Part shown: in pieces, positions 39,801 to 45,800 of the stretch
How the letters are laid out: every line of letters begins with the position of its first letter
Position numbering within the stretch: the first letter of the stretch is position 1
Source of the DNA: Hormiphora californensis
Taxonomy: Eukaryota > Animalia > Ctenophora
Assembly (NCBI GenBank): GCA_020137815.1
Contig: CM035352.1
Location: 9,323,176-9,387,175 of the forward strand
DNA: 64,000 bases
Direction of reading: 5' to 3'
Translations under genes and position numbers: made by a program
Notes under the pieces: generated by a model
The model's database searches: none
What the model was told of the DNA's origin: nothing
What the model saw: only the letters and a program-made list of their open reading frames with translations

Positions 39801-42800
39801 GTAGTAATGTACTACTAATGTACTACTACTAATGTACTATATTAAGTATGTAATATTGATAGTAGCTCGATATATCTTATTCCAACATTATTGGTACAGA
39901 TAATGTTGCGGTGAACGCAACACAGCGAATAACTGTGATTAATGCATTAGTACTAAATATCGGATTCCATGGATACTGTTCCATAATGGGATTACCAAAA
40001 TAACATTTGATGTACTTCACAAGTGATGATTTAAGAGTTGGTTGTATATCTGATGTACACATCTTATCCAATGAGAATCCTTTGACCAGTGCTGTTGTCA
40101 GTTAGCGATCAACGCCAATGTAGTGTACATCCATCAAATGTATGCTCCCCATGAGCCCACGTTCCATTGGGACCATCAATACATTGACCTTCGTAGATTT
40201 CCGAGGAGTTAGTTGTATATCTGATAGAGGATATTGTAGTCTTGATAAGTCATTATCCTTCTTTGAACGGTTTGTAAGACATTAGTTGTTCAAGTATTTA
40301 CTCATCAGTCATCCTGCTCTCGCGTCATTGAAAAATCAACCCGCCTGAATCTACCAGATATCTGAGTGCGTAAAATACCTTTAGTAGAAGAACATCTGAT
40401 CGACTTTACTAATTGTACCTTCAGAGATACGCTTATGTTCACACTTGTGTTTCGTCTGCCAACCAAATTAAGGTCTTTTTGTTCAACCAAAACCAGGCCT
40501 TATAATGAGACACCGTTACCTAAACAGATTAAACGCATGTATGTAATAACACCTTGGGTATAATTACCCGGGTAATTATAATCCGTACTAATACATCCTA
40601 TTCCTAAGCAGACACTATAGTATCTGCTTAGGATGTATAGTTGCTATAGTTACATCCCAATTGTTATCAAGACCTACTTCTCACGAAGCTGTCACAGTTG
40701 GCAGTGTCCCGGCACTTTTTAGAGGACGAATAGTATCCTTCAAAGTAGTCCAAGGATTTAGTGCCAAGTGATGCTTTACTAAGATCGGTATAGTCGCCAA
40801 TACAAGCTTCCTGGATAACTGAAACACAGCTCGTGTTAGTGCTACTACGTTATACTATACTACTATAGTACTATGTTATACTATGTTATACTACGTTATA
40901 CTGTTGTAGTATTGGTGATGCACCCTAACAACTCCCGCGTGTAGCGCAGCAAAGCCCACGTGTTCCTCTAGAGAGGTGCCCAAACTGTTACACAGTACCT
41001 GGTATAGAATTCACATAGTGCTGTACCTATTATAGGTACAGCACTATGTGAATTCTACCAGGTATAACTACTATAATAGTAGTTATACTGTAGTCCATTT
41101 TACCTGGTATAAGTTAGTGCTGTACCTGGTAGTTAGCGCTGTAGTTCATTTTACCTGGTAGTGTTCCATAGATGGCAACTTCATTAAAGTGCAGACATTC
41201 TGTTCCCTGTAGTTGGACCATGAAGGCATCTGATCTGGCACCCATCTTATCACACTCAAAGTGATATGTGTAAGGTTCCCACTCATCTGCAAAGGTATTA
41301 TATCAGATTTCATCCCTCTACTAGCCGGGGTTATCTATATTATAGTGCAGGCGATATTATAGTACAGCTGCGGTATTATAGTGCAGCTGCGGTATTGTGG
41401 AGTCAACTATGAGGTACTGGAAGTCTCTACTATTATAACAGTCTGTTTACCGTAAGTCGTGAAAAGAAAGTCTCTACTACATTGGCCGACCCCCCCCCCC
41501 CAGTTTACCGTAAGTTCCATATATAGCTAGCTCGTGGAGAGAAATTCTCTACTACATTGACCGACCCCCCTCCAGTTTACCGTAAGTCGTGTAAAGAAAG
41601 TCTCTACTACATTGGCCGACCCCCCCCCCAGTTTACCGTAAGTTCCATAGATAGCTAGCTCGTGAAAAGAAAGCGCTGCGTCTCCTGCTGTTATCTTCAC
41701 TGCCTTGGCTCTCACTTGATCAAACGGACCAAATTTGTAAATTTGTACAGCGTCTGCATTACTCACTGTTCCTTTTAGAGTACCATCAATGTATAGCTAG
41801 GGGAAATGTATAGAAATGTATAGTTAGGGGAAATGTATAGCAATGTATAGCTAGGGGAAATGTATAGCAATGTGAAGCTAGGGGAAATGTATAGCAATGT
41901 ATAGCTAGGGGAAATGTATAGCAATGTATAGCTAGGGGAAATGTATAGCAATGTATAGCTAGGAGAAATGTATAGCAATGTATAGCTAGGGGAAATGTAT
42001 AGCAATGTATAGCTAGGGGAAGTGTATAGCAATGTATAGCTAGGGGAAGTGTATAGCAATGTATAGCTAGGGGAAATGTATAGCAATGTATAGCTAGGGG
42101 AAATGTATATCAATGTATAGCTAGGGGAAATGTATAGCAATGTATAGCTAGGGAAAATGATATATCTAGTAATCTTTTTAAAGGTATCATGTTTACCTTT
42201 GCTCCGTTCAAGTCAGATAGTTTCCCAATACGGTTATAAATATGTACGGCGAGAACGGCAACGTAGGCAGGGAATGTTATTGTAAATGACTGGTCTGACC
42301 CACCCGCCGAACTTGAATAACTATCGTCACTGGAGGGGGTGTTTTACATTAGAATGAGCACAGAATTAATATGGTATCTCGCTAAACTGTTGTTCATTGC
42401 TATAATATAGCTGGTATAATGTCAGTATTGCAGTATTACAATAGATATGTCACTTATTGCCTTGATCGACCCTGTTTCAACATACCTTACACGGCTGACG
42501 GCATGGCATTAAAAATATGAAGGAGGATTAGAACACGACATTACAAATGTGAAGGAGGATTAGAACACGATATTACAAATGTAAAGGATGGTTGTATATA
42601 ACACGATATTACATAAGTCACTTACTACTCGAGGTTTGCACCCTTACTCTTTCCACTGTCGCTCGTTGCTGTTATTGTCCCCAGACTTGCAATATTCGAC
42701 CAATCTAATTATAGGATAATTATAGGATAATTATAGGATAATTATAGGATAATTATAGGATAATTATAGGATAATTATAGGATAATTATAGGATAATTAT

Positions 42801-45800
42801 AGGATAATTATAGGGTAATTATAGTTATAGGTCATAGGATAATAAGCCTACTGACAAGGAACGTACAGTGTGTAACTAACAATTTGTTACTCACAGTTGT
42901 GCTGTTGCACCTCACAATACAAACTCACAGGGAAGGCTCCACTTAGAGCTCGCTTTATCCGTAGATAGAAATGTGAATCCTCGTGCTGGTTTTGTCATTG
43001 TACATCCCGAAGAGTAATCATAACCCACCACGTAGACAGAGTCAAACCTGATGTTTTTATTCGTGATTAAAACTGGAGGTGAAACAATTGTAGCTCGTCT
43101 GATTGTCACTCTCAAACTTACAATTTCTGATATACTGGTATACCTGTGTAAAATATAATACAGGGTATCCCACCCTGTATAAATCACAGGTCACGACAGT
43201 GGGACACCCTGTAATATTAGGTATACACTAACCACAAATAAATGGAGGTGAGTGTTTTTATAATTGACCACACTCCTCCCTTTGATGATCCGTCATTTGC
43301 AGTCCAGCTTGGCTCACTATAACAATTCGTAGAAAGCTGTATAACATCTGAAAATACAATACAATACAATACAATACAATACAATACAATACAATACAAT
43401 ACAATACAATACAATACAATACAATACAATACAATACAATACAATACAATACAATACAATACATCAACAATACATCAACAATACATCAACAATACAATAT
43501 AATACAATACATCAACAATACAATACATCAACAACACAATACATCAACAATACAATACAATACATCAACAATACAATACAATACATCAACAATACAATTA
43601 TACATACTGGTCTTGACTTCAAGAAGTCCGACAGCTGTGCCCGATTCGTCTATGTACTGGATAGCGATCGGGTTGGAAGTAGTAACTCCTGCTGTAGTTG
43701 TGACATCTAGTCGGTTTCCTTCAATCAAGTCAAAATACACCGGGTATCCTCTTGCAATATCAACTGCTCCTCTCATCACTGACGTTTTTTGAAATTATAA
43801 AGCCATGTCCCCAGGTATTGAAACTTTAACTATTAAAACGTTAATTAACTTTATAATTGGTTTACCAGCTGAAGGAAAGTGATTGAACGAAGTTGTTTTG
43901 ATAGTCCCACAGTTGTCTGCTTGGGCCCCTTGTAGTTGCAGTGTTACATCAGCATTATTTATCCTGCTTCGTGCCCAACTGTCGTACCTGTTAATTATAG
44001 TTTAATAAGCGATTAATTAATTAATTAATTAGTTTGTTAAGTGATTCTGGTGACAGTGCTCCGCTCAGAGTGATCTGGACCATTCCTAGCTTGTGATTCT
44101 GGTGGCAGTGCTCCGCTCTGAGTGATCTGGACCTTTACATAGCTTTAAATGTTACCTATTGATTAGTTTTCCTCCCCACACATAGTACTCTCCATCAAAT
44201 GTCATCTGAAATGGTTGCCAATAAAGAATCTGACAATACAAAGGTTGAAGAAGGTCCAAAAACGAATAAAAACTTACAAAATAATAGAAAAAGGAACACG
44301 GAACGCCGAAAGGTACAAAGACGTAAGCACTCTCGCCATAGAGTCATTCGGGTATACCCGAATGACTCTATATATGGGACAGTCCATGGCGCACATGAAT
44401 TTTTCATGAAAATTAAAATGGCATTTGAAGGGTTTTGCTGGGTATAGGGGTGAAGGGAATTGTTTGGGCTATTGATTGCAACTTGTTTTAGGTCCAAAAC
44501 CCAAAAGATGAATCCATGAGAGTTATCCAAAGTTGGGTCAAATTCTTTCCAAATTTGGGCAAACTTTTTTAAATAGCTCCAGTTTTTCCAAAAAAAGGGT
44601 TCAACTTGTAGAACCACCCCAGGTTATTAGGCAAGGCCATAAAGTAACTACTCGAACAAGAGATAGCCCATGGAGAAGCATACGCAAACCAGGAAAAATG
44701 TTCAAATATCGTGTCTGAGTGAGACAATTTAGAGATAGAAAAGTTTTTTTGTGTCTAAACTAGACACAATCTGGGGATGAAACTTGTTGGAAGCTGTGAT
44801 TTTTAGTGAAACAAACTCAACTGGTGAGTGGGAAGATTCAGTTGAAGATATTTTCCAGATTACGACACCGGTGACCGTGTCTGAGTGAGATGCAATGTCT
44901 GAGTGAGAGTAACAAGTTCATTAAAAACGCTGAAATACGACCTTTTTCCATTGCTGAACACGATCATGACCATAAAATGAGACTCAGAAGTATGAAAAAA
45001 TGTCTAATTTTGCCTTAATTGGGTATAATTGGGCATAATTGGTAAGTTGACCAATTTTTTTGTTTCTCTCACTTTTCACACTAATCCCACCCATACTAGA
45101 GACTTTCAGGAGTTTCAAAGGTTTGCTACAGCAAGTACTCAGCTTGATACACTCTAAAAACCCTGCTGGATAAATCCTAGATAGGATAATATCGAAAATA
45201 CTGCTATGCGCATCGCACCCAATTAATTATTTTTTAATTGTCCAATTATCCAACTAACCAAATGAGATAACAACTTTTTATGGGTGTCTACCCCCACTAA
45301 TGCGAGGACGCTACACAGTTTAATGTCCTTATTTTCATCTATACTCCTTTCTGAAGGGTAGTTGCATTTTTAGTCCCAGTTCATGTCTGAGTGAGATAGA
45401 GAGATATTCAGATATCCAGAAATCTTGACACTTGAAACAAGAAAAAGCTTTGCTGAGCTGGAAGATTGATCAAAGTACAATATATTGACGTGGTTATGGA
45501 TATCCGGACACATTAAGAGGGTTAAAACTGAAAAATGGTCACTAAAATATCAAGATATCTCTCTGAATGAATCGTTAGATCTCTAATTTTTACTGTATTA
45601 CTATATGCCATAATAGGAGCATACTATTGATCAGTGCATCTGGCCAACAACATCACATAAATAAATTTTTTCAACCCTCAAAATGACCTAACTATCAGAT
45701 CCGATATTTTTTATAAACCTTGACACTTGAAACTAAAAAAAGCTATGTTGAGCTAGGTAATCGATCAAAGTACGAAATACTAAGGGGGCATGGGTATCCA

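Follow-up and report, generated by a model that had tools for sequence, protein, structure and literature searches.

Can a compact extracellular domain be opened by the exons of other whole domains and still be completed further along the same gene? This question is raised by a 64,000-nucleotide stretch of the genome of the ctenophore Hormiphora californensis (GenBank assembly GCA_020137815.1, contig CM035352.1, positions 9,323,176 to 9,387,175; hereafter the window, by whose own positions all features are given). A very large minus-strand gene fills most of the window, running from a first coding exon at 56474 to past 1398. The encoded product is a mosaic of kringle, WSC and sushi domains recognized by Pfam, F-type-lectin-like domains, and unnamed beta-rich units that presumably resemble ctenophore families; judged by its sequence, it is an animal extracellular protein, predicted to be secreted. 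Within it, an F-type lectin domain that we call A is interrupted by a block of six exons encoding two further domains, B and C, and A with its insert in turn separates a kringle into two halves. We favor, with moderate confidence, a model in which exon-shuffled modules were inserted into introns inside domains and their exons are joined in the order of the genome to give a single secreted protein with nested domains.

A lectin domain divided by six exons

The divided domain, the block and the introns that separate them are as follows, with intron phases given from the 5' to the 3' end of each exon.

47009..47136, minus strand: domain A (F-type lectin) exon 1, phase 1 to 0; FDG and HTxC..PWW; FBP32 is the top match (E-value 1.3)
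44156..44205, minus strand: domain A exon 2, phase 0 to 2
43866..43987, minus strand: domain A exon 3, phase 2 to 1; RYD..R and Cys85; its end falls in a long loop
43779..43865, minus strand: intron flanking the block on its 5' side, 87 nucleotides, phase 1
43608..43778, minus strand: block exon 1 (domain B), phase 1 to 1
43233..43347, minus strand: block exon 2 (domain B), phase 1 to 2
42929..43047, minus strand: block exon 3 (domain B), phase 2 to 1
42629..42704, minus strand: block exon 4 (domain C), phase 1 to 2
42197..42329, minus strand: block exon 5 (domain C), phase 2 to 0
41637..41796, minus strand: block exon 6 (domain C), phase 0 to 1
41287..41636, minus strand: intron flanking the block on its 3' side, 350 nucleotides, phase 1
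41155..41286, minus strand: domain A exon 4, phase 1 to 1; Cys111, Cys130 and the closing strands
42929..43778, minus strand: inserted domain B, three exons, 134 amino acids, beta-rich, no named family
41637..42704, minus strand: inserted domain C, three exons, 122 amino acids, F-type-lectin-like, without cysteine or fucose motif

Exon 43987-43866 terminates in phase 1 at ..[16 protein letters not shown], and the acceptor at 43778 lies 87 nucleotides past its donor, the distance reported in an earlier note on this DNA; retention of the intron between them would bring an in-frame stop. All six block exons have AG/GT ends and a single open frame each, and together they amount to 774 nucleotides, or 258 stop-free codons, entered and left in phase 1. 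When the exon anatomy was re-read, the coordinates, phases and peptides of the earlier note were recovered as given, and its estimate of an in-frame insert of about 259 amino acids was right in kind and size, the exact count being 258 codons.

By sequence comparison, exons 47136-43866 and 41286-41155 make one F-type lectin domain. A profile was built from 16 bacterial F-type lectin domains, with a seed protein that belongs to Pfam PF22633/PF00754 and matches the structures 2j22, 3cqo and 1k12. The first three exons of A alone scored 10.8 bits against this profile (positions 23-85 of 150), and addition of exon 41286-41155 raised the score to 20.2 bits and the span to positions 24-147. None of 300 shuffled versions of the last exon reached this score (the highest gave 12.3 bits), and joining exon 3 of A to other candidate exons brought no gain (9.7 bits with 43778, 9.8 bits with 40818). 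The claim that 41155-41286 completes the host lectin is thus borne out. Against a profile that includes the gene's own paralogues, A scored 31.6 bits over positions 16-143 of 145, with shuffled sequences at 5.7 bits or below. As a further lead, the last exon of A lies in the ESM Atlas near F5/8-type-C-like clusters (score 0.93, with the family on 41% of members).

The sequence of A was also compared with the sugar-binding motifs of the family. The fucose motif of F-type lectins is His..R-x-D-x4-(R/K), printed with the spacing HX24, and in eel agglutinin it comprises His52, Arg79 and Arg86 (PMC5712786). Domain A has H-x26-R-x-D-x5-R with a further arginine two places earlier; the spacing from histidine to arginine is the same as in the eel protein and the last arginine is displaced by one place. 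At the cation motif h2DGx (h = V, A, I; x = N, D, S), A reads G-F-D-G-K, in which the DG is aligned and the flanks deviate. The intron phases inside A (0, 2, 1) differ from those of the gene's five other lectin-like domains (2, 0), and A therefore likely derives from another lectin subfamily.

The position of the break is consistent with an insertion that the fold could accommodate. In a modelled bacterial relative (predicted local distance difference test score, pLDDT, 71) the corresponding site is a loop that connects two strands, and in A this loop exceeds that of relatives by about 11 residues. The break lies between Cys85 and Cys111, two cysteines equated by eye, against an FBP32 stretch, with Cys108 and Cys124 of eel agglutinin, which form a disulfide (PMC5712786); the two cysteines are 26 residues apart in A compared with 16 in the eel pair, and a Cys85-Cys111 disulfide across the break is predicted.

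The two inserted domains are less readily assigned. An alignment of C with A crosses the break (Z score 6.5, with 0 of 300 shuffles as high), and C matches a profile that includes the gene's paralogues along nearly its whole length (positions 33-139 of 143) at 8.5 bits, above all 300 shuffles (highest 7.0); against the bacterial domains alone it scored 4.6 bits. The earlier note described C as a whole second lectin-like domain. Its span supports that description, but the match is weak and the sequence has no His-Arg-Arg triad, no R-x-D and no cysteine, so that C has at most a lectin-like fold. Domain B had no relative in Pfam, the PDB or homologue searches, and its first exon forms four strands in a low-confidence model (pLDDT 61).

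A kringle as the outer host

The units on either side of domain A, and the exons upstream of them, are listed here.

56408..56474, minus strand: first coding exon, phase 1 out; hydrophobic, signal-peptide-like start (best 9-residue hydropathy 2.54)
51623..51892, minus strand: WSC domain in a single exon, phase 1 to 1; Pfam WSC, E-value 2.4e-5
50884..50991, minus strand: N-terminal half of kringle K1, the outer host, phase 1 to 1; Pfam Kringle positions 5-29, E-value 1.3e-4
50272..50728, minus strand: complete kringle K2, inside K1; two exons, 50728-50593 and 50396-50272; Pfam Kringle positions 6-37 and 46-79
47339..48383, minus strand: beta-rich unit, inside K1; exons 48383-48290, 47972-47813 and 47558-47339, phases 1, 2, 0 and 1 in turn
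40678..40818, minus strand: three-cysteine exon, the last piece inside K1, phase 1 to 1, or 1 to 0 at donor 40685; no family assigned
38692..38802, minus strand: C-terminal half of kringle K1, phase 1 to 1; Pfam Kringle positions 48-79, E-value 5.1e-6

When the two halves of K1 are joined they contain six cysteines and both ends of PF00051, and they align with the intact K2 at a Z score of 15.7. They are separated by 694 codons, and the acceptor of the second half, exon 38802, is weak, with a second AG at 38797. Neither the kringle halves nor the lectin halves can be cross-paired in frame, and because of this the domain order reads, from the sequence, as brackets set one inside another, K1[ K2, unit, A[ B, C ]A, exon 40818 ]K1. 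The unit at 48383-47339 looks galectin-like by eye and has no Pfam family at E<0.05. A third split is doubtful: in an alignment read by eye the WSC exon seems to divide a galectin-like unit (55106-52249 and 51553-51482) ahead of its last strands, and this division was not significant in two tests (833 of 2,000 and 99 of 300 shuffles as high).

In the region 39850-40660, the missing part of the three-cysteine exon 40818 could be supplied by two weak candidates, at 40519-40445 and 40220; alternatively these could end the frame with a stop and give a short form.

Reading frame and intron phase

Joined in genomic order, the 64 exons mapped from 56474 to 13843 encode 2,600 residues with no stop. 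This frame includes the two exons 47972-47813 and 47558-47339, and exon ends near the nest are firm except for the donor and acceptor choice between 40818 and 38802. Exon 48383-48290 had been considered as an orphan, to be read in back order after 40818 or as an alternative lectin half (26 of 300 shuffles scored as high); this reading is needless since those two exons link it in order. As all mapped exons can be read in a single in-order frame, the third-track and out-of-order alternatives of the earlier note have lost ground.

The phases of the host introns provide one indirect argument for joining block and host. Phase 1 accounts for 32 of the 63 mapped introns; among the 39 that lie inside recognizable domains, 6 are in phase 1 and 33 in other phases. 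Inserted blocks occupy two firm and one doubtful phase-1 introns of this intra-domain set and none of the 33 in other phases. For the two firm cases, with phase 1 in 5 of 38 such introns and thus rare, the probability of this distribution is 0.014, or 0.067 with seven unclear phase-1 introns added to the intra-domain set, and it is 0.002-0.019 when the doubtful third case is included. If a block were never joined to its host its phase would be free, and thus the bias toward phase 1 favors in-order inclusion.

Is the block kept and spliced with its host?

The block has not decayed, which the earlier note had raised as a possible outcome: its six exons are intact and their in-frame codon bias is on par with that of the rest of the gene (0.29 and 0.21 bits per codon, respectively). 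A block under no selection would rarely last: in a simple simulation of neutral decay, 23 of 300 copies were still intact at 2% divergence and 0 of 300 at 10%. The median mapped intron is about 256 nucleotides, and with introns this short splicing in order is the expected default. Furthermore, the introns that flank the block do not pair so as to loop it out (-20.2 kcal/mol compared with -19.2 +/- 3.3 for shuffled sequences, 19 of 60 as low), in a test that is noisy, one of its three controls having given 0 of 60. The phase bias, the intact block with normal codon bias, the position of the break in a loop and the short introns with non-pairing flanks are our reasons for favoring in-order inclusion.

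We envision a scenario in which intronic recombination moved modules bounded by phase 1 on both sides into introns of the same phase that lay inside domains; such insertions would be tolerated as the sites are disulfide-closed loops. Lectin A would close around the 258-residue insert, with the break in a variable loop whose ends are stapled by the predicted Cys85-Cys111 disulfide. The entire lectin branch would form, together with K2 and two further units, a 694-residue loop suspended from K1. Alongside the nested product there may be a shorter one in which the in-frame join 43866>41286 leaves the block out. The earlier note's proposal that linear splicing places the insert in a surface loop of the host agrees with the frame, the intact exons, the loop position and the phase of the host intron, but the product itself is one that we infer.

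Several observations weigh against this model. The case for the nested protein draws on the genomic sequence, and the orthologue searches described below brought it no support. The 2,600-residue frame is in part a fit, since some exon ends further down the gene were hand-picked to maintain it; the phase test comprises two firm cases with domain limits drawn by hand, and K1 also has a phase-0 acceptor option. The acceptors of the block average 4.95 bits, below the 7.46 bits of 44 downstream exons (p 0.02), and its donors are also weaker (5.5 compared with 7.4 bits, p 0.06); weak sites of this kind are found in optional exons. All skip joins, including the one just mentioned, are in frame. The intact state of the block could simply mean that it is young. 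Exon 40818 is possibly half a domain without a partner, and a 4.3-kb element lies in a later coding exon, which may mean that the gene copy is damaged.

Searches for relatives of the arrangement were negative within their reach. Orthologue searches, which extend to only 2,000 residues and so fall short of the longer protein of this gene, recovered 0 of 50 candidates with exon 43778, 0 of 17 with exon 15278 and 2 of 46 with the WSC exon, both of the latter being WSC-repeat proteins that match that exon only. Exon 41796, searched with HMMER over 1.84 billion representatives, gave a single chance match to a CUB-repeat protein, and a metagenome scan gave a single chance bacterial locus. Contigs of one sequencing run, presumed to be RNA, shared next to nothing with this DNA and covered no exon within 43470-44300 or 40650-41810, an outcome that is uninformative on expression. 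Matches to the PAN family were weak or broken (3 of 301 and 1 of 401 genomes).

Alternative explanations

The alternative that best survives, while still unlikely, is that the block is a separately used cassette, either skipped (43866>41286) or used in place of its host (47339>43778 ... 41637>40818), in which case the nested protein would be rare or never made. The weaker splice sites and the in-frame state of every such join are in its favor, and an unbroken lectin or kringle would fold without strain. There is also a precedent in oyster bindin, which varies its F-type lectin repeats through splicing and through recombination in a mid-domain intron (PMC5712786). However, 8-12 splice sites would have to be silenced jointly across short introns, the flanks provide no pairing to loop the block out in the noisy test described above, and in the host-replacement form the phase 1 of the host introns goes unexplained.

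It is quite unlikely that the arrangement is a recent rearrangement confined to one haplotype, a decaying copy of the gene or a misjoin in the assembly, each without a selected product. The arrangement is known here from one assembly, the gene has a coding exon broken by the 4.3-kb element, and a young move would leave exons intact, 102 of 300 simulated copies being so at 1% divergence. On the other side, there is no N in the window, and the block is flanked by short unique introns with no second copy within the window; its borders have no transposon ends or repeats. Such an origin would moreover require two nested events, each with both ends in phase-matched introns.

A third possibility, which we regard as improbable, is that the block is a separate same-strand nested gene, its 5' end formed by spliced-leader trans-splicing at 43778, around which the host is spliced. 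In Hormiphora, both the parallel nesting of genes and trans-splicing of leaders occur commonly (PMC8527503), and an in-frame ATG is the first full codon after 43778, as it is in just 2 of 32 phase-1 exons. But a parallel nested gene has its own start and end within one host intron, and beyond the ATG these are lacking: the start of the block has no signal peptide (hydropathy 0.8, compared with 2.54 for the first coding exon), there is no stop-bearing last exon but a normal donor at 41637, and none of five poly(A) hexamers occurs in the intron that follows. Only 87 nucleotides separate the host donor from the block, and the outer block, beginning at 50728, has no start codon. A scan for the leader motif, with 2 matches where 0.68 were expected, was not taken as support. 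Finally, out-of-order joining by back- or trans-splicing, which would keep all domains whole, is extremely unlikely. The join 41637>50728 does read in frame, as the earlier note stated, but so would any phase-1 acceptor. Exon 48383-48290, the only one for which a back join had looked necessary, has in-order partners, and at least three backward jumps would be required.

Relation to known systems

Domains set inside other domains have been described in animal proteins. FN2 lies inside the catalytic domain of matrix metalloproteinases (MMPs), and the integrin hybrid domain appears itself to be inserted in PSI, giving two levels. A close counterpart is laminin, whose L4 domain is inserted in an LE domain after the third of its cysteines and ahead of the fourth (PMC5338690). 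In both cases a globular beta-sandwich sits between the cysteines of a small disulfide-bonded extracellular module, and in laminin, as far as that source describes it, the host fold is kept. The laminin case has one level and one insert and has been solved, whereas in the present gene an F-type lectin and a kringle serve as hosts, the inserts comprise two and at least five units, one set inside the other, and the structure is predicted. The favored model would make this a known kind of event, exon-shuffled domain insertion as in laminin L4-in-LE, set apart by its two levels and its unusual hosts.

The rule of exon shuffling that class 1-1 modules enter phase-1 introns, as exemplified by FN2 in MMP-2 (PMC3927616), describes the block well: it is flanked by phase-1 introns, its recipient intron is in phase 1, and the product is a mosaic secreted protein. 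Unlike the class 1-1 examples in that source, which lie mostly between domains, the recipient introns here are inside compact modules, twice over. The integrin beta-I domain, inserted in the hybrid domain (PMC3585415), is likewise an example from an animal extracellular protein of one domain placed within a loop of its host; that case is ancient, fixed and between unrelated folds, and the part of the source used here shows no match to an exon block. In oyster bindin the internal intron of the F-type lectin is a site of recombination, and the repeats change place within the gene and are subject to alternative splicing (PMC5712786). Bindin thereby swaps halves and alters repeat number, and it is not described, in the portion of that source cited here, with whole foreign domains inside the lectin. 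In Hormiphora californensis itself, parallel nested intronic genes have intact same-strand exons in a host intron, in some cases doubly nested (PMC8527503); those are separate transcripts in the account given there, whereas the present block has no end of its own and is in frame with its host on both sides. Literature searches returned no report of a domain inserted in an F-type lectin host, the kringle not having been searched by name, and no match to the nested arrangement as a whole; those for ctenophore F-type lectins gave only unrelated work.

Repeats and neighbors of the gene

Splice sites in the window are repeatedly amplified as tandem arrays (48643-50300, 41787-42164, 41532-41643, about 19960-21870 and 1-1400). 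The donor of exon 50396-50272 is present in 36.8 copies of 45 nucleotides, the acceptor of exon 41796 forms the end of an array of 14 copies of 27 nucleotides, and other donors are similarly arrayed. In the intron after exon 47136-47009, a perfect 201-nucleotide inverted repeat with 88 nucleotides between its arms (46275-46764) is probably a young miniature inverted-repeat transposable element, and a similar long inverted repeat was seen by eye near 26890-27650. The 4.3-kb element (9020-13365) has perfect 16-bp terminal inverted repeats and lies within the C-terminal exon of a third kringle; its ends offer GT donors at 13359 and 13353 and an AG acceptor at 9023, and splicing it out in frame would leave 2-4 extra residues, features that make it introner-like. 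At about 60700-64000 there are plus-strand pieces of another gene with hydrophobic exons that by eye resemble those of a membrane protein. This gene lies head to head with the main gene or apart from it, with a 3-kb tandem array between them.

What the arrangement could mean

Exon shuffling is usually pictured as adding beads to a string. Here the exon borders are still visible at each step of nesting, and the gene may therefore be a readable case in which shuffling built a branched protein. More tentatively, the main product could be a branched secreted protein made by recursive exon shuffling, the WSC domain in the galectin-like unit included, and nesting might even be a building rule of this lineage. 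If the block is skipped instead, it would be an unusual six-exon cassette. If the nested protein is made, kringles and F-type lectins would join the domains that serve as hosts for insertion, and annotation by profiles, which misses such nesting, would overlook split kringles and lectins or label them pseudogenes.

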